A DNA stretch of 64,000 bases from a virus (IMGVR_UViG_3300010163_000009:32001-96000), one strand, 5' to 3'; counted from the stretch's first letter, positions 8,904-39,334 are shown. The notes: generated by a model not told the origin, from the sequence alone. A program made the numbers and translations.

Positions 8904-8938
8904 AATAATTTGATTTGAAGTGAAACTTAATTTATCGT

Positions 8939-8971
8939 TGCAAAAGTAGATAAAATTTTCAATATAACAAA
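8939..8971 (-). promoter_or_regulatory. Bacteroidota primary-sigma promoter for the leftward operon
   Basis: Minus strand TTTG (8968-8971), 19-bp spacer, TACTTTTGCA (8939-8948). Confidence 0.75.
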
Positions 8972-8975
8972 TATT

Positions 8976-9005
8976 AAAATAGTCTTTTTGATATAAAATA
9001 TTTTA
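8976..9005. promoter_or_regulatory. Operator-like repeated element, copy B
   Basis: AAAATAGTCTTTTTGatATAAAATATTTTA; matches 5018-5047 and 51316-51335. Confidence 0.55.
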
Positions 9006-9120
9006 TATATTATTGATATATAAGTATTTATAAAAACAGTAAATATCTAAAATAGTTTAGTTGATTATTTAAATTGGATAATTGTGTACATGCTCTTAAA
9101 ACAAAATAGGCTGGAAAATT

Positions 9121-9128
9121 CTATTCTT
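9121..9128 (+). promoter_or_regulatory. Putative late promoter (CTATTCTT element) upstream of portal
   Basis: CTATTCTT begins 30 bp before the ATG; upstream CCC element poorly conserved in this copy. Confidence 0.5.
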
Positions 9129-9150
9129 CAGAAAGTAAACATAGTTACAA

Positions 9151-10479
9151 ATGGCTAAAGCAGAATTATCAGATAAATCACTTGTTACTCAGCAACTGGA
9201 AAGCGTATTTATGACCAGTAAGAAGAGTGTGCAAGAATATGTTAGGGAAATTGAGCGTAGGTGTCGGTTTCAATCTTCCTATCGACACTTACAAAATGGT
9301 ACGGTGCTGGATGACCGTAGCCGTTTAATAGATATATATGAAGCTTGTGTTCAGCAAGATGCACATTTACGAGGTGTTATGGAAACACTCTTTTCTCAGA
9401 TTGTAGGTGAAAGGTTTATGATGGCTAAGCAGAATGAGAAAGGGAAATACTCTAAAGACATATCTGCAACTCGAAAAATTCAGAATACGGAGTTCTTGAA
9501 AATCATACATGGTATCGCAGAATCAAAATTATATGGCTATACCGGGCTTGAATTTTTTGTTGACCCCAGTGCAGAGCGTGGTGGACTTAAAGTGAATTTC
9601 GTCGAGCGTCGAAATATTTTGGCAGATCAACGCAGGATTGTACAGCGTCAAGGTATTTGGATGCCTCAATGGAGTTTTGATGATCCAAAATATTCAGATC
9701 ATTATGTATTAATCAATAGTGGTGAGCTTGGACTGTTTTCGGCTGTTGCTCCTTTGATTTTGGCGAAAAAGTTCACATTTGCCAACTATGTAAACTTTTC
9801 GCATACTTACGGTCAACCTATTATTCATGGGAAAACTGAATCTGAAAATACCGTTGACCGCAAGCGTATGGCAAATGATATTGCAAGCGCAGCTCAGAAT
9901 AAGGTTATTGTTACCGGATTAAATGATGAAGTGGATATAAAGACGTTCACTATGTCTAATTCTGAGCATGTGTTTACAGGCTTAATCTCCATCGTTGACA
10001 AGGATGTTTCTAATCTTATTCTTGGCTCTGAGTCAATGGCCGGAGCAACACAGTCGTATGTTGGAGCAACAAGAGCGCATGAGAATATTTTTCGCGACCG
10101 TATAGAAGTTTATCGTGATTACATTGAACTTGTAATGAACGAGACTATCATACCTCGTTTAGTCCGGCTTGGCTATCTTCCGGATGGGTTGGAGTTCAAA
10201 TATTCAAAGCGTATTGAGATGTCTGACGAAGACCGCATACGTTTATTCCAGAATCTTACTACGTCATGGGAAATGGATCCGGAGACCATTGAGCAAGAAT
10301 TTGGTGTTAAGGTAAAACGACAACTTAACGTAATGGACGGTATGACAAGTGGTCCAGCTGGAGGTGGTGGCAGTGGTTATAGTCGTACTGCTACTCGTCA
10401 TCTTACTGATGAAGAATATTTCCGTCGATATGGTCATGCTCGTGAAACCAAAAATTTTCTTCGGGAGAGAGGGAAATAG
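9151..10479 (+). CDS. Portal protein (Mu gp29/DUF935-like)
   Basis: First gene of head module; LIDIYE...QQDAHL, SKLYGY, FSHTYGQPI, SNLILG, HE, MNETIIPRL features typical of Mu-like portals. Confidence 0.8.
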   Translation: MAKAELSDKSLVTQQLESVFMTSKKSVQEYVREIERRCRFQSSYRHLQNGTVLDDRSRLIDIYEACVQQDAHLRGVMETLFSQIVGERFMMAKQNEKGKYSKDISATRKIQNTEFLKIIHGIAESKLYGYTGLEFFVDPSAERGGLKVNFVERRNILADQRRIVQRQGIWMPQWSFDDPKYSDHYVLINSGELGLFSAVAPLILAKKFTFANYVNFSHTYGQPIIHGKTESENTVDRKRMANDIASAAQNKVIVTGLNDEVDIKTFTMSNSEHVFTGLISIVDKDVSNLILGSESMAGATQSYVGATRAHENIFRDRIEVYRDYIELVMNETIIPRLVRLGYLPDGLEFKYSKRIEMSDEDRIRLFQNLTTSWEMDPETIEQEFGVKVKRQLNVMDGMTSGPAGGGGSGYSRTATRHLTDEEYFRRYGHARETKNFLRERGK

Positions 10480-10496
10480 GTCCGCCCCCTCTCTCC
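10452..10496 (+). other. Putative programmed -1 ribosomal frameshift signal (portal to gpF-like fusion)
   Basis: A_AAT_TTT heptamer (10452-10458) in portal frame, 5-nt spacer, perfect 10-bp stem GGAGAGAGGG (10464-10473) / CCCTCTCTCC (10487-10496); -1 frame runs without a stop into 10509..11363. Confidence 0.75.
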
Positions 10497-10508
10497 AAAA
10501 TAGTTGCG

Positions 10509-11363
10509 TTGCGACAGCCTGATGACAGTAAGGACCGGCATGAAGAAGAGGTTGCTATTCTCCTTCCTTTATTCCATGATTTTGTGATTAGTGTGGTAAT
10601 CCATGAAGATGAATGGGAATCGCTGGAAGCGCTTATGGAAGCTCGTGCTGATATTGCTATTCGGAGAGCGTGTGCCGGATTCGGCATTGACTTTGAGGAG
10701 GCACTGCGGCTGATTCGTAATGCTGACGGACTTGATAGCGAGCAAATAGCTCAACGCAATATTGTTTTGTCCGCAGTTGATAATATGGTTGACTTTGCTG
10801 TAGCTGAAGAATATCAAATGGCTGATGATATGGCAGAGTTAGAAGAATTGTTAACTGAAGAGGAGGAGATGGAAGATGAAGATTGGTTTGAATTTTACTT
10901 GCCGGTCTTTTCCAAATTTCACGATCAATATATGCGGACCGAGAATATGGACATCGAGTATTCTATGATCATCGCAGCTTATCTGTCAACGATAAGAGAA
11001 GATACAGTATTGATGTATATGACTCAAGGCGATGAACGGGTACGCCCGTGGCATCTTCAATATGAAGGTTTTACTGCTCCAAAATCAAGATTTCCAGCAT
11101 GGCTTATTCCTCCTATTGAGCATCAATGTCGATGTTATCTTATAGAAGATACAGAAACGGTTTTTGCTTCTATTAAAGCATCGACAATCCCGGAAATGCC
11201 AGATTGGTTTAATCGTACATTCAAAGAAAGCGTGGCTTTGGGTGGCCGCATTTTTTCTGATGAACATCCATATTTTCAAGTTGATGAGCGGCATGTTGGC
11301 CGTCTCAATGCCATAGCAAAGCGTATTAAAGCAAAGTATTTGGAAGATGGCGAAGAACAATAG
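10509..11363 (+). CDS. Minor head / head morphogenesis protein (Mu gpF / SPP1 gp7-like), likely made as a portal fusion
   Basis: YMTQGDERVRPWH and PPIEHQCRC motifs; no ATG near the 5' end; frame open from 10446. Confidence 0.85.
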   Translation: MRQPDDSKDRHEEEVAILLPLFHDFVISVVIHEDEWESLEALMEARADIAIRRACAGFGIDFEEALRLIRNADGLDSEQIAQRNIVLSAVDNMVDFAVAEEYQMADDMAELEELLTEEEEMEDEDWFEFYLPVFSKFHDQYMRTENMDIEYSMIIAAYLSTIREDTVLMYMTQGDERVRPWHLQYEGFTAPKSRFPAWLIPPIEHQCRCYLIEDTETVFASIKASTIPEMPDWFNRTFKESVALGGRIFSDEHPYFQVDERHVGRLNAIAKRIKAKYLEDGEEQ

Positions 11364-17466: not shown

Positions 17467-17862
17467 ATGGAAGAAAAAGAAACCCTTGAACTTCAGGCAA
17501 TCGAAGAAATCGATCCTAAGCTTCGTGCAGCCGTTGAGAAGAAGGTTGCAGACTTGAAAGCAAATAACCCAAAGGCAAAAATTTTCCCGCTCATGGTGGA
17601 TGGTGATCCTGATGACGAGAAAGAAGTGTATATCGGCTATTTCACACAGCCATCGTTTATCACTTTCTCCAAGTACATGACTTTCGCTCAGAAAGATCAA
17701 GTATCTGCTATGCGCCAGCTCGCCCGCGACTGTTTCCTTGATGGAGACCGTGAACTCATTGACGACGATTCTCTGTTCCTTTTCGGTCTTATGGGGCAGT
17801 TAAACAATATAATCCAGATGCGCGGCGGTCGTGTTATAAATTTATCGAAGCCTGGGAAGTAA
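17467..17862 (+). CDS. Tail assembly chaperone (gpG-like)
   Basis: 131 aa between tube and tape measure; ends with a slippery site. Confidence 0.75.
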   Translation: MEEKETLELQAIEEIDPKLRAAVEKKVADLKANNPKAKIFPLMVDGDPDDEKEVYIGYFTQPSFITFSKYMTFAQKDQVSAMRQLARDCFLDGDRELIDDDSLFLFGLMGQLNNIIQMRGGRVINLSKPGK

Positions 17863-30737: not shown

Positions 30738-33700
30738 ATGGCAAAAAGAATTATTATCGACGATGACATCCCATCTATTGAAGTGCCTTGGGATGATGGA
30801 ACGCAAGCCTATAGCGGTAGAGCTGTAGAAAAGTTTATCAAAAGTCAATTGTCTTCAAAGATTGGCTATATAATCATTCCACAGACAAAAGACACTGATG
30901 GATATTACCATATTTGGGGATTCTCTGACCAAGCAGCCTATAATGACTATATGACCGACACTGATGCTAATGCTGCGCTTCGGTTATTGAATGTTGCAAT
31001 TCCCTTGCTTGAAGAACAAGGTGGAGTAAGCAATATCGTTAAACTAACCAGAATATCTTCAGGGTCACTTGTAACGAGCAAACCGATTGCAAGCGTGGAA
31101 GTATCTTATTTGTGGCAGCAATATAATCCAATCACTCAGGAAACTACGGATCAAGATGAAGATGCAACTATCGTGGTGTCTTGCCGTACACAAAATGCAA
31201 ACGGTGCGTGGGGGACTTGGGATTCCAGTAAAGAGTTCACTGTGAACATTCAGTCAGGGCAAACCAAGATCATAGACCTTAGCAAGCTGTTGACATCTGA
31301 TGCCACTTATCAAGTTCGTCTGATAGCAACAGGAGAGACGAGTGGCATTTCTGCCAGCCCGGTAACGATGACAATTATCTATTCCAATGTAGCCGTAAAT
31401 TATGAAGGGTCGATTGCAACTGCATACCAAGGTGCAAGCATCCAGTTGCCGTTCCGTATTTCAGGTAGTGTACAAAAACAGCTTCGTATAAAAATCAATG
31501 GATATACCAAGAATTATACACTTGGAACCACAACATATACGGATAATACTTATGGGGCTACTCTCACTCAGGCGGAGTTTACATTAACACGTGGAGCAGT
31601 TAAGGCAGAAGCATGGATTGCGTTTGGAGAAGGATATACTGCTGAAACGGAGCATCAGGAATTTCAGTTCATCTATATTCCAGAAGGAGATACTTCGATT
31701 ACTCCGATTTTGGCCGTTACAGATATTATGGAAGAGTTTCCAAACTGGACGCGTGCTACAATCTTTCGCTATGCCATTTACAATCCGGTAGATAGCGAAA
31801 CCCAGCTAAATATTACGTTACAAGACAGAGATTCTGGTCAAATATATATTCAAAAGAAGATTGTTTGTGTGAATGGTGAAGGATATGATTTCGATGAGAA
31901 TTTTTCTATGGAGTATGAAGGAGATGAACAGCCTAATGTTATCAATGCTCAGGCTGTATTTACCAATGCTGCCGGAGTAACGTTTGGTAATAACATTAAC
32001 TTTACAGTAGATAATTCAGAGAATTTCGCACCAACTAAAGGTGCGAATGTGGTGATTTCAGCAGAAAAGCAAACTATTGTCATTGACGGTGTTGAGTATG
32101 AGTTGAATGACCTCCTTTCTGATGCAAAAGATACAAATACCGGTTGGCTTAGTAACGTAGAAACAGACACGACCGGTGCGCAAGTAAATGTTCCTGTTCT
32201 TAGTATTGGTGCTGGAAACAGTCTTACGTTACCGTATGAGCTTTTTGATGAAAACACAGGTCATAATACCAATGGTGTTGAGGGGTCAATCACTATTGAG
32301 TTTGACATCAAGGTAAAAAACATTGTTGGAGATTCGCCAATCATTGATGCTTCTTCAGCTTTCAGTAACGCATATACCGGGTTAAAGTTCTATCCAACAC
32401 GTGTCGTATGTCTCAGCCGTAATAATTTTACAGAGGAAATTTGCGATGACCATTATCAGGAAGAAGTGCGTGAACATATTGCAATCAATATCATTCGCAA
32501 TCTTCGTGGAGAGGGTATGAACCTTGTTCGTATATACATCAATGGTAAGTCGAATCGCTCATTCATTTATACTGATGAAGATAGATTTGTCCCAATTGGA
32601 ACGAGTGGATCTCAGGAAATAGTAATCGGTTCGGATGAAGCAGATGTTGATATTTATGGTGTTCGTATATATAAAGGTCAGCAACTTGGTTCAACTCAGA
32701 TTCAGAATGATTATATGGCTGGAATGCCAACTATTGAAGATAAGAAACTATTCAAACGATTCAATTCTATCTTTAATGGTACAGAGATTGGTTACGATTT
32801 ATGTAATGCAATGGGACTTAACACCATTCTTCGCAGGATTCCAGAAGGAGGTCATTATCCTTCCCGTGAAAATCAGAGTAAACAGAAAGATGTAACCATA
32901 GATGTACGTATTTATACAGAACGTGGTAATGCTGAAAGTCTTGATACCAAGCATTCGGGTACTTTTACTGGCATGACAGATAAAGGTCAGGGTACTTCGG
33001 CAAAAGGTTATTATTGGTGGAATATTTCCGATGGTTTTGAAGACGATGAGGAAATATCTGCTGATGAATATAACGCAAATGACCCTACGCACTATACAGA
33101 AGAGGGAAAATATTATAAGAAAATATCGTATTTTAACTCGCTTGATGGCGTGAGTCAGGTATATGCCAGTGAGTATGAATTGGAAGATGGTCGTGGGGGG
33201 ATTACGAAACTTGTTGGCAAATGTAATTACGCTTCTCCTATGCAGAGTCACAAGCTCGGTGCTATTTGGGCTTATGATGAACTTTGGCAAGTACTTGTCA
33301 ACGATGGCAGTGATAGTCGCCCTGTACTGCAAGACACCCATGCCTGCTGCTACGAAAAACCATTTCTGTGTTTTTATCAAATTGGAAATGAGAATCCGGT
33401 ATTTTGTGGCTTTCAAACTTGGGGTAGCGGCAAAGGTGATAAAAAGACTTTTGGTTATGATAAGAAGAAAAGTCCTGGCTATCTGTGTATTTCTGGTGCT
33501 GATAATGGTGCAGTTGCAGCTCTTTATCAGATGCCGTGGAATGTCACCAAGAATGCTCAGGGGGCATGGGAGGGTAATATTTATCCTAAAAGTGTTACTA
33601 TTAATACTGGTGATGTAAAAAATGGTTACTGTTATAAAAGCGGTAGCAGTGACACTCTTTCATTTGAAGTTGAAATAGGACAAAAATATGATGGAGGTGA

Positions 33701-36700
33701 AACGGACAAAGGCGTACTTCGTATCGAGGATGAAGCTAAAGGAGAATCGGAAACTACTCTGTTTACTACTTTTGCGGAGTTCGCGAATTTCGTGTTTTCC
33801 TGTTCACCGCTTCTTAAACCCTATGCAGGTACTGAAGCTCAATTGATAGAGGACAGTGCCAATCTTGTACGAGATCACCAGTATTGGCTTTTCAATTCCG
33901 GCTCTGACCGGTATAATGTCTATTATTACAATCCGGAAACATCCAAGTTTGAGAAAATTATCAAGGTTCCCACAGCTTGGGGAAGTGACAACCGTGCATA
34001 CGCTTATGGCAGTCCAAAACTAACTGAACAGCTTGCCGGTGTAACCATTTCCATCGACACGGTTGGTGGAACACAGAATGTAACGTTGGAAGAGGCAATG
34101 GAAATTCTCGGCACTTCTGACATGGATGTTCTGAATGAGTGTTTCTGTAAGGCTCGTGTGGCATACTTCGTCAATCATGCAGACGCTTATCTTGACATCA
34201 AGGACATTATCTTTCATCAGACGTTCTTGAAGCTCGAAGCCGGGACCGACAACCGCACGAAAAATGTTTATCCATTTATCGACCCATCGGTTGACAAATT
34301 AGTGCGTTGGAAACAGGATGACCTTGACACTATCAAGAAGACCGATAATCAGGGACGTCAGACCAAGCCTTACTATGTACTGGAGCATACAAAGGATGCC
34401 AATGGCAGCAATTATTGGAATGGTGAGAACAATGTACTTTTCACACTGATAGAGCGAGCTTATCCAGACCGTATGCGAAATATGATGAGGGACATATTTA
34501 CCATGATGGCTCAGATTGCTGGAAGTGTCGAAAACTATATGCAACAGCGTTTCTATTGGGTTCAAGAGTATTTCCCCGCTGTAGCCTATAATGAAACGAG
34601 TCGCGTTCTTTACGAGGTTGCTCAGGTAAAATTGATGAATGGTCTTATTGATGTAAGCCAAGACCCTATAACCCAGGCTGTAGGCGATCAGTTGGAGTGC
34701 GAGAAACAATTTATGAATCAACGCCTCCCTATGTTGATGTCGTGGTGTGAGTATGAAACCGGAGGCGACGGTACACTTAGTTTCCGTTCCGTCAATACTG
34801 TTGGTGGAGCTGCTCCAACTTATGATATAGAATATACCGCCTATCAATACATCTATCCAAAATTGGCAATCGGTGGAAAACTCGCTTCGATTTATGCAAA
34901 AAAAGATGGAGAATGGATAGACCAAGGCAGTGACCCCTATCTTTGTGCTCCGGGGGAAACGGTACGTTTGGTCGCTGACACAGACTCAAACACTCAGTTT
35001 ACTATGCGTTGGATGCACTATGCTAAGGGCATTGGTAATCTCGGATCGTTACCTTGTGGTGAAGACGGTAATGTAAATATCACAGGGCGGCGTCTTCGTA
35101 AACTGGAATGTTGGTCTTCTGATGGCGTTCCGATCGAATTTCACCCAAAAGGTTTAGTGATTTCCAATTGTCGTAATTTGGAAGAAATAAACCTTACTAA
35201 CGCATCGGCGTTCTCTGGTACATTCTCGGCTGACCTCCCTCGATTGAAAAAACTTAGTTTGATGGGATCGTCTTATACGAGTGTAACGCTTCCTAAAACC
35301 TCAACATTGACAGAAGTGGAATTACCGACATCTGTCAATTCAATCTTGGTTGATGGTCAACCCAATCTTTCATCAATCTTGGTTGAAGGTATGGAAAACC
35401 TTCGTACATTCCAGGTTATTGGTACGCACAAAATTCAAAATCAGACACAATCGCTTATTCAACTTGCTTTTTCACAGGCGAAAAACCTTACTCTTGTACA
35501 GATTGAAGATGTGACGTGGACAGGTTTTGCTGTGGATGTTATGATGTGGTTACATAGTATAAAAGCCTCGCTGACAGGAACTATCAGCTTGACCGGAAAT
35601 TTGACATTTGACAATAAGCTTGCTTTGGCAGAAATTTATGGCAATATAGATGATACAAATAATGATTTATATATAAGTTATTCTAAACGTGCTATTAATA
35701 GTGTGTCTATTAATGGGGCGTCCTATATTAGTGAGACAGGGACATATAAGTATAACCTTGTTTGTTCCCCTTCTACTGGAAATGATGTGGCTTTGAAGGA
35801 TGGGCGACTGGCAATTGAGTGGTCGATTGACGATAGCGCCAAGACTTATAGCTCATTTATTGATGCTGTGAACGGTCAGTTGAAAGTAATTAAACTGGAT
35901 GAGAGCGGGACAGACATGCGTTATATTATCCAGTGCAATCTTACAAAAACAAGCGGTGCAGTTATGACTGCGGAGTATATGGTAGGTTTTTATCGTCGTA
36001 TTCCCAAAATAGGTGACTTTGCTTATGCAGACGGTACATTCGACGATCAGTTCTTGAAAGACAAAACTGTTGTTGGTATTGTCTACAAGATAGAAGAGAT
36101 GTGGCAAGGCGATAATGAATCGGAACCGACCATCTTTTCAGGTTATAATAAGCCAACCGAGTTGTTCAAACAAAATCGTCATTTGGTTGGCTACCAGATT
36201 AGAGTTGATGCCAAAGAGAATGTACCATTTAAGAGTACCGATGGTTTTATTAACACAGGAAGTACAGTTTGGGGGCTTTATTCTTCTACTGACAGCAACG
36301 GACATGGCGACATACAGACTGAAATCAGTGCTGCTACAGGTATCTCCTCTATTTTCGATTTGCCTGGGATTAGTAATATTACAAGTCGAGGTTGGTCAGG
36401 TGGCGTTGATGACAATTATCTGACTACTGGTAATTATCTTGACACGGACGAAGACGATGGCTTTAAAGATTGGAGTTCAGCTTCCGGCACTGTAACTGAT
36501 TGGCAAGGCAAACAGAAAACTCAAGCCATTATTCGTCACGCCAATCAAATTATCAATGCGTATCTGCTTTCTGATGAAAACGAGTCTGTATCTACATATT
36601 ATACTGATGAAAATGACGAGGGGCATGAGTTCTCTGAACTTCCAACTACTGTTGAAGAGTTGGCTAACGCTATGGAAATACTTCATAAAGCCAATAACAG

Positions 36701-37292
36701 TCTTACAAAGTATCAGCAGTTCCTTTATCCTGCTGCTTATGGGTGCTATCTATATCAGCCCCAAGTTAAGGAAGGTGAGACGCTTGATCCTCAGTATGCT
36801 ATTAATCAATGGTATCTTCCAGCTTGCGGAGAACTTTATCGTCAATATAGCTTCTTCGCTAAGTCGAGAACTGGTGGCATGGGAGAAACTTATACTGAAG
36901 GTCAAGGTACTTCCCCTGCAAGAAGTGTTATTGATGACATGATTCTTGCAGCTATCAATTCATCTGAGGACAATGAAATCAAAATGAATGTTTCTCCTTC
37001 ACATGTAGAGTATAGTGATTATACTGGATTGGAGTTAGCTGCAATCAACCGATATTTTCATTCTCTCGTAGAAGCAGAAAAACCTATTTATTCAATGATT
37101 TTATGGCGAGCCTTGGTTGCAAACGGTTCTGCACCGTTCACCCAGCACAGCACAGGCTACCACTGGTCATCCGCTGAGTACTCTGCCAACGGCTCGTGGT
37201 TCGTGTACTTCGTCAGTGGTAGTAGCTACGGCAATAGCAAGTACAGCACTTACGTGGTTCGCCCTGCTGTAGCCTATCAGTTTTTTCTTTAA
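30738..37292 (+). CDS. DGR target: giant tail-fibre/adhesin-like protein with C-terminal C-type-lectin-fold variable domain
   Basis: 2184 aa; LamG-like region, CotH-kinase-like region, LRR-like repeats, WYLPACGEL and YHWSSAEYSANGSW...VRPAV CLec-type end containing VR. Confidence 0.9.
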   Translation: MAKRIIIDDDIPSIEVPWDDGTQAYSGRAVEKFIKSQLSSKIGYIIIPQTKDTDGYYHIWGFSDQAAYNDYMTDTDANAALRLLNVAIPLLEEQGGVSNIVKLTRISSGSLVTSKPIASVEVSYLWQQYNPITQETTDQDEDATIVVSCRTQNANGAWGTWDSSKEFTVNIQSGQTKIIDLSKLLTSDATYQVRLIATGETSGISASPVTMTIIYSNVAVNYEGSIATAYQGASIQLPFRISGSVQKQLRIKINGYTKNYTLGTTTYTDNTYGATLTQAEFTLTRGAVKAEAWIAFGEGYTAETEHQEFQFIYIPEGDTSITPILAVTDIMEEFPNWTRATIFRYAIYNPVDSETQLNITLQDRDSGQIYIQKKIVCVNGEGYDFDENFSMEYEGDEQPNVINAQAVFTNAAGVTFGNNINFTVDNSENFAPTKGANVVISAEKQTIVIDGVEYELNDLLSDAKDTNTGWLSNVETDTTGAQVNVPVLSIGAGNSLTLPYELFDENTGHNTNGVEGSITIEFDIKVKNIVGDSPIIDASSAFSNAYTGLKFYPTRVVCLSRNNFTEEICDDHYQEEVREHIAINIIRNLRGEGMNLVRIYINGKSNRSFIYTDEDRFVPIGTSGSQEIVIGSDEADVDIYGVRIYKGQQLGSTQIQNDYMAGMPTIEDKKLFKRFNSIFNGTEIGYDLCNAMGLNTILRRIPEGGHYPSRENQSKQKDVTIDVRIYTERGNAESLDTKHSGTFTGMTDKGQGTSAKGYYWWNISDGFEDDEEISADEYNANDPTHYTEEGKYYKKISYFNSLDGVSQVYASEYELEDGRGGITKLVGKCNYASPMQSHKLGAIWAYDELWQVLVNDGSDSRPVLQDTHACCYEKPFLCFYQIGNENPVFCGFQTWGSGKGDKKTFGYDKKKSPGYLCISGADNGAVAALYQMPWNVTKNAQGAWEGNIYPKSVTINTGDVKNGYCYKSGSSDTLSFEVEIGQKYDGGETDKGVLRIEDEAKGESETTLFTTFAEFANFVFSCSPLLKPYAGTEAQLIEDSANLVRDHQYWLFNSGSDRYNVYYYNPETSKFEKIIKVPTAWGSDNRAYAYGSPKLTEQLAGVTISIDTVGGTQNVTLEEAMEILGTSDMDVLNECFCKARVAYFVNHADAYLDIKDIIFHQTFLKLEAGTDNRTKNVYPFIDPSVDKLVRWKQDDLDTIKKTDNQGRQTKPYYVLEHTKDANGSNYWNGENNVLFTLIERAYPDRMRNMMRDIFTMMAQIAGSVENYMQQRFYWVQEYFPAVAYNETSRVLYEVAQVKLMNGLIDVSQDPITQAVGDQLECEKQFMNQRLPMLMSWCEYETGGDGTLSFRSVNTVGGAAPTYDIEYTAYQYIYPKLAIGGKLASIYAKKDGEWIDQGSDPYLCAPGETVRLVADTDSNTQFTMRWMHYAKGIGNLGSLPCGEDGNVNITGRRLRKLECWSSDGVPIEFHPKGLVISNCRNLEEINLTNASAFSGTFSADLPRLKKLSLMGSSYTSVTLPKTSTLTEVELPTSVNSILVDGQPNLSSILVEGMENLRTFQVIGTHKIQNQTQSLIQLAFSQAKNLTLVQIEDVTWTGFAVDVMMWLHSIKASLTGTISLTGNLTFDNKLALAEIYGNIDDTNNDLYISYSKRAINSVSINGASYISETGTYKYNLVCSPSTGNDVALKDGRLAIEWSIDDSAKTYSSFIDAVNGQLKVIKLDESGTDMRYIIQCNLTKTSGAVMTAEYMVGFYRRIPKIGDFAYADGTFDDQFLKDKTVVGIVYKIEEMWQGDNESEPTIFSGYNKPTELFKQNRHLVGYQIRVDAKENVPFKSTDGFINTGSTVWGLYSSTDSNGHGDIQTEISAATGISSIFDLPGISNITSRGWSGGVDDNYLTTGNYLDTDEDDGFKDWSSASGTVTDWQGKQKTQAIIRHANQIINAYLLSDENESVSTYYTDENDEGHEFSELPTTVEELANAMEILHKANNSLTKYQQFLYPAAYGCYLYQPQVKEGETLDPQYAINQWYLPACGELYRQYSFFAKSRTGGMGETYTEGQGTSPARSVIDDMILAAINSSEDNEIKMNVSPSHVEYSDYTGLELAAINRYFHSLVEAEKPIYSMILWRALVANGSAPFTQHSTGYHWSSAEYSANGSWFVYFVSGSSYGNSKYSTYVVRPAVAYQFFL
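37146..37273 (+). repeat. DGR variable repeat (VR)
   Basis: 128 bp aligned to 37976-38103 without gaps; 15 mismatches, all opposite TR adenines (9 G, 5 T, 1 C). Confidence 0.97.
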
Positions 37293-37350: not shown

Positions 37351-37866
37351 ATGGATATAAACGGAAAAACAATGTCTTATAAGGAAGTTTGTGAATTATT
37401 TGATAACACAATTCCTGCCGAAACAGAAGATGCGGTAATACTTTCCAACGATGAGATAAATCGGGCTCGTCGCAATAAAAGAGAGATGCGTAAGAAAGCT
37501 ACTGGATTTCAGAATACACCAATTTACAGGTCGTTACACGCATCTATGCGACTTATCATAGAAATTGTACAACTGATGCCAAAGAAGTCGGTTAAGGTAT
37601 CTGACATCTTGCTCCAAAATTTTACTGAATTGATTCGTTGGTCTGCTGCGGCTTATAATCATCAAGACGATTTACTTAAACAAAATGCACTTGAAGAAGC
37701 TATATCTTTAATGAGTGTAGTTAAGATTACACTTAACTGTATGTCCAACCTCGTTAGCGAAACGAAGCACAAGCAGCTGATTGCGTCGTTTGACGCGGTG
37801 ATACGTCAACTTGTAGCATGGCGTGGCTCACTTATACAAAGCCAGGGTTCCGATGATGAAGCCTAA
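37351..37866 (+). CDS. avd: DGR accessory variability determinant (Avd-like four-helix bundle)
   Basis: 171-aa helical protein between VR and TR; TPIYR...MPK...IRQLVAWR pattern. Confidence 0.8.
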   Translation: MDINGKTMSYKEVCELFDNTIPAETEDAVILSNDEINRARRNKREMRKKATGFQNTPIYRSLHASMRLIIEIVQLMPKKSVKVSDILLQNFTELIRWSAAAYNHQDDLLKQNALEEAISLMSVVKITLNCMSNLVSETKHKQLIASFDAVIRQLVAWRGSLIQSQGSDDEA

Positions 37867-39334
37867 TAACTGTAACATCGGAAGAGAGCTTAGAGCTTTG
37901 CTCGGATATGGGCGGCTGACTCCGTGGCATGGTTTTAACTATGTTCGGAGTTACGAAGCTGCACAGCCGCATATTAACAGCACAGGCTACCACTGGTCAT
38001 CCACTGAGTACTCTGCCAACAACTCGTGGATCGTGAACTTCAACAGTGGTAATAGCAACAACAATAACAAGTACAACACTAACGTGGTTCGCCCTGCTGT
38101 AGCTCATCCGACAAAGGCTTGGCTTCAATTGAGGGAAAGTTTACAAGCGGCTTATGAAGATTGCTGTCGTGGCAAATCTTCCAGCCAACAATATCAAGAC
38201 TATATCCCTCACGCTAATGAGGATTTGGATTTACTTACAACCCAGCTAATTGAACGTACTTATCAGCCATCGACATCGACTTGCTTCCTTGTTAGATTTC
38301 CAAAATTGCGCGAGGTGTTTGCCGCCGCTTTCCGAGACCGTATCATACATCATTGGATATGTATGCGGTTGGTTCCACATTTTGAGGAACTTAACGAGAA
38401 TATTGGAAATGTTACTCATAATTGCCGAGTCGGATTTGGGACAAAATCGGCAGTTGATGGGGTTTACCAAGCAATCAAAGAAGTCACATATAATTACGGT
38501 ATTGAAGCCGACCTGTTTAGAGGAGATTTGGTAGGCTTCTTTATGTCGTTACCTCAGCGTCGTATGTGTGATAATTTGATAGAGTTTGCGCAAGAAGAAT
38601 ATCATGGTGATTTTAAAAACTTGTTGATATGGTTATTGGACGTGGTTGTGATGCACCGTCCAGAATTGAATTGTATGTTCAATTCATCGCCTAAAGATTG
38701 GGTCGGCCTGGCTCATAACAAGTCATTATTTAGGACTGGAAAGGGTCGAGGTGCCCCGATTGGGAACTTAACAACCCAGCTATTTGCCAATTTTTATATG
38801 GCGGATTTTGATGCTTTTATGGTTGATTGTGTCAAGAAACTGAAGAAAAGAGGTATTCGTGCTGCTTATCATCGTTTCGTGGACGATTTCATTTTGATAT
38901 GTAACGATAAATATGCGTTGAAATGGTTGATACATGCTGCTGAGATTAAAATCAACTCAATGGGTTTGACCATGCACAAAGATAAACGATACATCCAGCC
39001 TGCCAGTCACGGCGTTTTGTTTGTCGGTACACAAATCAAGAATGGCAGATTGTATCTTAGCAATCGAACTGTAGGTCGATTTACAGATAAAGCAAAGGAG
39101 ATTGCAAAATTCATGCAACAGCCAGCAAAAGAAATCACCTCAGCAGATCTCGACCATATTCTTGCTACTCTTAATTCATATTTAGGATTTTGTAAATATC
39201 GACAGACATATCGAATCAGACGTAAGATAATGAAACCACTAATTTATTCGCATGATTTCAAGCGATATTTTAAAATTAATAGAAATGTATCTAAAGTCAC
39301 CTTGCGGAAAGAGTGGAAAACTATTATTAAATAG
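37853..39334 (+). CDS. DGR reverse transcriptase
   Basis: AYEDCCRGK, REVFAAAFRDRIIHH, GDLVGFFMS, GAPIGNLTTQLFAN, RFVDDF, FVG motifs; start uncertain (ATG 37853/37856 upstream of TR, or TTG 38129). Confidence 0.95.
   Translation: MMKPNNCNIGRELRALLGYGRLTPWHGFNYVRSYEAAQPHINSTGYHWSSTEYSANNSWIVNFNSGNSNNNNKYNTNVVRPAVAHPTKAWLQLRESLQAAYEDCCRGKSSSQQYQDYIPHANEDLDLLTTQLIERTYQPSTSTCFLVRFPKLREVFAAAFRDRIIHHWICMRLVPHFEELNENIGNVTHNCRVGFGTKSAVDGVYQAIKEVTYNYGIEADLFRGDLVGFFMSLPQRRMCDNLIEFAQEEYHGDFKNLLIWLLDVVVMHRPELNCMFNSSPKDWVGLAHNKSLFRTGKGRGAPIGNLTTQLFANFYMADFDAFMVDCVKKLKKRGIRAAYHRFVDDFILICNDKYALKWLIHAAEIKINSMGLTMHKDKRYIQPASHGVLFVGTQIKNGRLYLSNRTVGRFTDKAKEIAKFMQQPAKEITSADLDHILATLNSYLGFCKYRQTYRIRRKIMKPLIYSHDFKRYFKINRNVSKVTLRKEWKTIIK
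37976..38103 (+). repeat. DGR template repeat (TR)
   Basis: Adenine-rich copy of VR with 12 AAY codons in the VR frame. Confidence 0.97.

Follow-up and report, generated by a model that had tools for sequence, protein, structure and literature searches.

The tail chaperones of phages lambda (gpG/gpGT) and SPP1 (gp17.5/17.5*) are produced by -1 frameshifting, as summarized in PMC6316719 and the work of Xu, Hendrix and Duda 2004 cited there. Other structural proteins are extended by recoding as well: the major head protein of Lactobacillus phage A2 by a -1 frameshift (cited in PMC10885494), and the SPP1 tail-tube protein gp17.1/17.1* by a +1 frameshift (PMC6316719). In SPP1, the portal protein gp6 brings 1-2 copies of the minor head protein gp7 into the procapsid; gp7 aids infection, and of the virions lacking it ~25% are infectious (PMC6316719, PMC5576092). 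In the Microbacterium phages EA3, EA5, EA8 and EB, portal and MuF form a constitutive single-ORF fusion for which no recoding is reported (PMC7302621). Both programmed -1 frameshifting and the constitutive fusion of portal and MuF (PMC7302621) are known already. A full-text literature search, whose coverage leaves out most subscription journals, found no frameshift in a portal gene and no paper that brings the two together, just as the first-pass annotation of this DNA had known of none. Look-ups in the papers on BS-TP1, PRFect, GeneTack, heptamers, Porphyromonas phages and Hankyphage found none either, and in the BS-TP1 paper frameshifts go unmentioned.

The stretch of DNA analysed here (the window, 64,000 nucleotides) is a portion of a 107,197-bp virus record. 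The virus encodes an integrase, a Mu-type portal, a Clp-like head protease, a sheath protein and a reverse transcriptase, and is therefore a temperate myovirus; its relatives are found in Bacteroidales genomes. Membership of the 'Gratiaviridae' was considered and dropped, as no test backed it. The portal gene (9151-10479, + strand, from the ATG at 9151 to the TAG ending at 10479) encodes 442 aa (50.7 kDa) in the 0 frame, and matches PF06074 (DUF935, Mu-type portal) with 150.8 bits and E=8e-44 against a cut-off of 23.9, as well as phrog_113 (portal); a sequence search found no solved relative of the portal profile. It is the first gene of the head module. An AT-rich divergent region occupies positions 8904-9150, after which the portal opens the head operon with no terminase gene ahead of it. 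The reverse transcriptase gene (37823-39334, +) lies downstream of a gene for 2184 aa (30738-37292), is preceded in its own frame by a weak Lcl_C match, and is probably part of a diversity-generating retroelement, as reported for BS-TP1.

Portal codons 434-436 read AAA AAT TTT, and contain, in the portal frame and six sense codons before its stop, the slippery heptamer A_AAT_TTT of the X_XXY_YYZ type (10452-10458, +), which encodes Asn435-Phe436. A 5-nt spacer, CTTCG (10459-10463, +), leads to a predicted stimulatory RNA hairpin (10464-10496, +), whose arms at 10464-10473 and 10487-10496 form 10 perfect pairs and whose loop holds the portal TAG (10477-10479); the fold has an energy of -24 kcal/mol over 62 nt (z=-2.6). 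Just 5' of the slip site the -1 frame is closed by a TGA (10443-10445, +), and from there it stays open as the MuF/gpF ORF (10446-11363, +; TAG at 11361-11363), with 301 aa after the slip, so that a portal-MuF fusion would comprise 737 aa (84.9 kDa). Heptamer, spacer length, 10-bp stem and open -1 frame had all been pointed out in the first-pass annotation and were found as described, and its predicted products, a 442-aa portal and a fusion of ~737 aa, agree with the computed ones. The cultured Bacteroides phage BS-TP1 (PQ571274), which has the same gene order and an annotated portal (gp45) 92% identical to that of the window, carries the same junction signal, and its record annotates two genes at the portal/MuF junction.

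We consider it highly likely, from sequence comparison, that a programmed -1 ribosomal frameshift makes a portal-MuF fusion at this site. A ribosome with AAU in its P site and UUU in its A site would be stalled by the hairpin 5 nt downstream, and both tRNAs would re-pair one base back (on AAA and UUU). Ribosomes that do not slip would open the stem and terminate on the UAG that its loop contains, releasing the plain portal; those that slip would continue through a short flexible linker into the complete MuF domain. Portals are regarded as homo-dodecamers, with a single ORF encoding all subunits. Here, the fusion would be a minority product that co-assembles into the 12-subunit ring, and such a mixed ring would carry a few MuF domains into the capsid, in place of the non-covalent gp6-gp7 targeting of SPP1. 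In E. coli, the class to which A_AAU_UUU belongs (H_HHU_UUY) is among the most efficient of heptamers (PMC4066793).

The arrangement resembles gpG/gpGT in having an X_XXY_YYZ site near the end of a morphogenesis gene, in its expected short 0-frame product and C-terminally extended -1 product at a set ratio, and in a downstream ORF without its own start; it differs in that the portal is the target, that what is added to it is an entire minor head protein, made separately in other phages, and that the hairpin is strong and conserved. As with the A2 head protein and SPP1 gp17.1*, recoding would equip some subunits of a virion oligomer with an extra domain, but those systems extend capsid or tube subunits, whereas here the 12-subunit portal gains MuF. 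The Microbacterium fusions, and the fusions P0187-P0239 of this study, likewise place portal and then MuF in one chain, and such a chain is viable; unlike them, the window fusion requires a change of frame, although some of the single-ORF fusions examined have a slip signal in their linker. With SPP1 gp6-gp7 the locus shares a MuF gene directly after the portal gene, whereas gp7 is translated separately and binds non-covalently, and its homology to the window MuF is distant (below the TIGR01641 cut-off). Heptamer plus 3' hairpin also recalls the -1 frameshifts of E. coli dnaX (tau/gamma) and the IS3 family (PMC4066793), from which the window differs in its heptamer, in a polarity that is the reverse of that of dnaX, and in the lack of a conserved upstream SD-like stimulator, which was found in only 18/46 representatives.

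Heptamers arise by chance: the + strand of the window has 13 copies of AAATTTT, and among 423 heptamer-like sites on both strands the portal site is distinguished by the strongest downstream fold for spacers of 4-6 nt. We take conservation across relatives to be the decisive evidence from sequence. Loci were gathered via protein similarity and not via the signal, which gave 109 distinct junctions with portal identities of 51-99%. MuF is in the -1 phase in 100 of the 109, and 98 of these 100 have A_AAT_TTT in frame, 5 or 6 codons 5' of the stop. The heptamer is present in 46/48 representatives below 90% identity and in 21/23 below 80%. Relatives without heptamer and -1 phase, named by the first-pass annotation as evidence that would speak against its reading, were accordingly not what the survey returned; heptamer, hairpin and phase, which it had proposed to follow across related junctions, are kept at most of them, and the hairpin covaries.

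The conservation extends beyond the encoded peptide. A_AAT_TTT is found at the junction in 99/101 sequences (window included) versus 0/101 at the invariant internal Asn215-Phe216 of the same portal, which is written in 15 base combinations, A_AAT_TTT never among them. The share of AAT or TTT at conserved Asn and Phe columns is only 21-69%, and at 132 conserved residue columns the modal codon never exceeds 87%. Because the internal Asn-Phe control and the conserved columns vary in this way, the codon conservation at the junction is not due to peptide constraint. The codon ahead of the heptamer takes ten different forms, all ending in A, and the signal is retained across GC3 values from 0.25 to 0.90. 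Within 25 codons of the heptamer, the -1 frame has a stop upstream in 43/46 representatives and downstream in 0/46; the +1 frame has a stop within that distance in 41/46.

Portal and MuF might also appear as two ORFs if a really single fused gene had been broken by a sequencing or assembly error or by a recent frameshift mutation, which in-frame portal-MuF fusions, being common, and error-prone homopolymers could be thought to favor. Yet the phase is shared by ~100 distinct junctions from viral contigs, isolate chromosomes, metagenomes and the cultured BS-TP1, and the portal ends 5 or 6 codons past the site in three different stop codons (TAG 45, TAA 35, TGA 19); this reading is thereby already refuted, and its probability is practically nil. 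The two -1-phase loci without the heptamer are of different kinds. In L038 the site reads T_AAT_TTC, the hairpin is lost (-3 kcal/mol) and portal and MuF overlap by ATGA, the only locus with an ATGA overlap and no heptamer. L167, from an uncultured Bacteroides sp., keeps the -1 phase and the hairpin, with G_TCT_TTT in place of the heptamer and no start codon following; it may be a decayed prophage or a case of single-tRNA slippage.

Despite a varying spacer sequence, the first GG of the stem lies 4 or 5 nt past the heptamer in 96/99 loci, and the stem usually ranks first, or close to first, in stability among the 45-nt folds of the portal and MuF genes. Its basal helix is paired at 92.8%, and RNAalifold recovers the same helix. 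Compensatory changes are in excess, with 63 cells altered on both sides vs 25.6 in shuffles (0/500 shuffles), counts that take in related sequences and are inflated by their kinship; a control slid by -1 comes near the true register (0.399 vs 0.423). Since relatedness inflates the counts, and the purine/pyrimidine arms bring the slid control close, we weigh covariation below the heptamer.

The composition of the site, an A-run followed by a T-run (A5T4 in the window), raises the alternative that the fusion is made by RNA-polymerase slippage, with one extra A or U inserted in the transcript of the run, and A10 tracts suited to such slippage do stand at the same junction in distant relatives (Peternella_1, L295 and L296). 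The homopolymers known for programmed polymerase slippage are ~9 or more A or T long. The runs at the related junctions are A3-6 followed by T4-6, with an invariant core of A3T4 that is all there is in 49/99 loci, and so are too short; moreover, the motif is fixed in the X_XXY_YYZ phase with a structure 3' of it at a constant 4-5 nt, which is the geometry of a ribosomal stimulator. We therefore favor the ribosome over the polymerase, on account of the short runs, fixed phase and constantly spaced 3' stem, and regard polymerase slippage as very unlikely.

The protein read in the -1 frame is assigned to the MuF family by weak but concordant profile matches and by a confident structural model. 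The window protein itself matches PF04233/TIGR01641 only weakly (19.3 bits vs a curated cut-off of 29.6), and weak matches to both are found in 21/21 aligned relatives (best E 2e-7 and 7e-9, respectively), while distant homologues exceed the cut-off. An AlphaFold model (pLDDT 84) consists of a disordered linker of ~20 aa, a first helix at residues 25-48, a helical bundle and a MuF core, and the five top-ranked Foldseek matches in BFVD are all annotated 'phage head morphogenesis domain' (E 2e-6 to 2e-5, TM 0.51-0.57). In the PDB, no meaningful fold match to MuF was found, the best being generic helical bundles (Z 7.6), and no solved relative was found by sequence. The position of the ORF directly 3' of the portal is the context described in PMC5576092. 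This is a short MuF of 301 aa with no room past its core: no polymorphic-toxin domain lies C-terminal to it, and no further Pfam domain was found; nor was a second MuF copy found in the genome.

How MuF is otherwise to be translated is the question on which the remaining alternative turns: that MuF is a separate protein, initiated independently or by coupling near the portal stop, at TTG 10509 or a near-cognate codon, with the hairpin regulating the coupling and Asn-Phe kept for protein reasons. The first ATG lies ~158 nt past the portal stop, which bears out the earlier remark that none occurs near the 5' end of the ORF. TTG (10509-10511, +) is the first start codon in the -1 frame and the only canonical one before the first MuF helix in the window, and it could yield a complete free MuF in this genome. 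That much of its candidacy, raised in the first-pass annotation, stands; as a conserved start it fails, being absent even from relatives at 90-95% identity: it is kept in 4/16 relatives at 88-99% identity, and the other 12/16 have TTA, GCA, GCC, GCG or AAA. It carries G at -3, a position that is A in 9/10 late-gene starts examined (8/9 besides portal) and at which A is a determinant of initiation in Bacteroidota (PMC6847099). Because initiation in Bacteroidota needs no Shine-Dalgarno sequence (PMC6847099), its absence is no argument against a MuF start, and to that extent favors separate initiation.

Across the clade, the stretch from the slip site to the first MuF helix is free of ATG, GTG and TTG in 23/45 representatives and free of ATG in 39/45; this helix is modelled by AlphaFold as belonging to the MuF domain, and relatives in which MuF has its own start include it. 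A near-cognate codon does occur within the first 22 codons in 44/46 representatives, and the -1 codon overlapping the portal stop is ATA in 33/99 loci and GTG in 16/99, although GTA is the commonest (42/99) and the most widely shared start position is found in no more than 18/46. A switch to an ATGA overlap seems to have taken place in L038, but it lost the hairpin along with the heptamer, and Asn-Phe persists in own-start lineages. Separate initiation leaves unexplained why the codons are fixed only in -1-phase loci, why the -1 phase itself is so prevalent, and why the same signal occurs inside single-ORF fusions (below). We judge it improbable, and propose on the basis of these comparisons that the frameshift would be the only route to intact MuF in most of the clade. 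If so, MuF genes of this group carry false internal start annotations; in BS-TP1, gp44 is called from inside the first helix.

Where the need for a frameshift is gone, the elements of the signal are gone together. At all nine loci with MuF in another phase, the junction contains an ATG, from which MuF starts just 5' of the first helix; none has A_AAT_TTT, and they fold at 0 to -6 kcal/mol vs -12 to -25 where the signal is present. Six of the nine (L155, L157, L164, L166, L168 and L170) keep Asn-Phe through AAC or TTC codons, and two of these (L164 and L170) retain A_AAT_TTC with the hairpin absent. The single-ORF in-frame fusions P0122-P0124, P0127 and P0128 (portal identity 62-68%) have lost Asn-Phe, and the linker DNA of P0122, P0123 and P0128 contains no comparable signal. 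In ten further junctions (L158, L173, L174, L177, L179, L181, L183, L194, L070 and L072) no MuF is detectable after the portal in the fetched flank, and the signal is missing as well. A quick IQ-TREE search with midpoint rooting gave a portal tree in which the own-start, fused and MuF-less states require about three changes apiece and are set among signal-bearing rows; the simplest reading of this would be repeated loss of an older signal.

The peptide Asn-Phe(-Leu/Phe) also survives without heptamer and hairpin in L276, L281 and L288-L294, either where the portal ends or within the linker. Since own-start portals and the fusions of a sister clade still have Asn-Phe, part of the junction conservation may lie at the protein level; the retained residues might be a relic, or might serve the protein itself, for instance as a protease cleavage or docking site.

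Single-ORF fusions also provide the reverse arrangement. All ten of the long MuF homologues tested combine Portal_Mu and Phage_Mu_F in a single ORF, and in one such fusion, L280 (L280:2787-2840), the linker contains A_AAT_TTT with a 12-bp hairpin 4 nt downstream, in mirror polarity: MuF is reached in the 0 frame, and a shift to -1 meets a stop after 6 codons. A divergent contig fragment (L287:24-75) has the same roles for the two frames, with the stop after 8 codons. A one-base assembly error in L280 was considered and is unlikely, as the divergent second locus has the same phase; single queries of IMG/VR found no relatives of the mirror loci. Both follow the logic of dnaX, with a long product in the 0 frame and a short product via the -1 shift. 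The occurrence of either polarity suggests, as far as sequences can, that a mixture of plain and MuF-extended portal is what is selected.

More distant junctions, each of them a single example, carry other candidate signals. In the Hankyphage-type Bacteroides phage jmh72_hp (L301:3173-3200), T_TTT_TTC with a GC-rich hairpin leads by -1 into MuF; in Porphyromonas phage013a (L300:2301-2330) the same elements stand in mirror polarity. Winogradskyella phage Peternella_1 (L297:1645-1654) has A10 at a junction in the -1 phase, and two portal-MuF fusions have A10 tracts at L295:2939-2948 and L296:1361-1370. Two Flavobacterium phages have an ATG at the portal/MuF junction and no signal. The distant homologues P0222 and P0230 are triple portal-MuF-toxin fusions, with an ADP-ribosyltransferase (PF01129) and a PBECR2 nuclease (PF18810).

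We lean slightly towards portal-MuF recoding being a second widespread and so far unrecognized frameshift of phage morphogenesis beside gpG/gpGT, one that would recur across Bacteroidota phages with Mu-type portals, through several signals (A_AAT_TTT, T_TTT_TTC, A10) and in both polarities, and would yield mixed rings whose minority subunits bring MuF, in some cases with toxin cargo, into the capsid. If this is true, two forms of the portal are translated from a single mRNA in a large group of gut Bacteroidales phages, and phage recoding extends beyond tail chaperones, capsid and tube proteins.

As to purpose, low-copy delivery of MuF is in our analysis the probable one, held with less assurance than the frameshift itself: a minority fusion would do covalently what SPP1 gp7 does. 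The first-pass annotation had held that recoding fixes a sub-stoichiometric number of gpF domains on the portal ring. A minority fusion is indeed plausible, but the number would not be fixed, since fused subunits that enter the 12-subunit ring at random would follow a binomial distribution, unless they are incorporated selectively; at an efficiency of 10%, for example, 28% of 12-subunit rings would be without MuF. The signal-free in-frame fusions show that a full MuF complement is tolerated, or trimmed by proteolysis, and argue that setting a low MuF copy number is not essential. Because own-start MuF and MuF-less relatives exist besides such fusions, low stoichiometry is not a universal requirement, and these relatives show that not every member of the clade needs the frameshift, or a low MuF copy number. 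The system thus offers a handle on the old question of how MuF/gp7 enters the head at low copy, and whether the number matters: if the frameshift operates, a synonymous or one-base change in the heptamer would give a phage with no MuF or with all portals fused, and natural versions of each exist.

Published proteomics of Hankyphage (PMC12135933, S6 Table) lists 3 peptides for MuF vs 20 for the portal, and MuF is present in the gel slice of 85-250 kDa, the range in which a fusion of 108 kDa is expected. We did not count these slices as evidence of a fusion, as small proteins are found in the same slice and MuF in lower slices too.

The same lineage also carries a frameshift signal in its tail chaperone gene (17467-17862), placed between the tube and tape-measure genes. 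An A_AAT_TTA heptamer at the end of this gene (17838-17844, +) is kept in 18/18 loci, and the -1 frame there opens into a conserved, uncalled gpT-like extension of 61 aa, to about 18029. Because A_AAT_TTA is conserved in all 18, heptamers nearly identical to that of the portal occupy the textbook G/GT position in this lineage; in the BS-TP1 record the gpT-like stretch is left unannotated.
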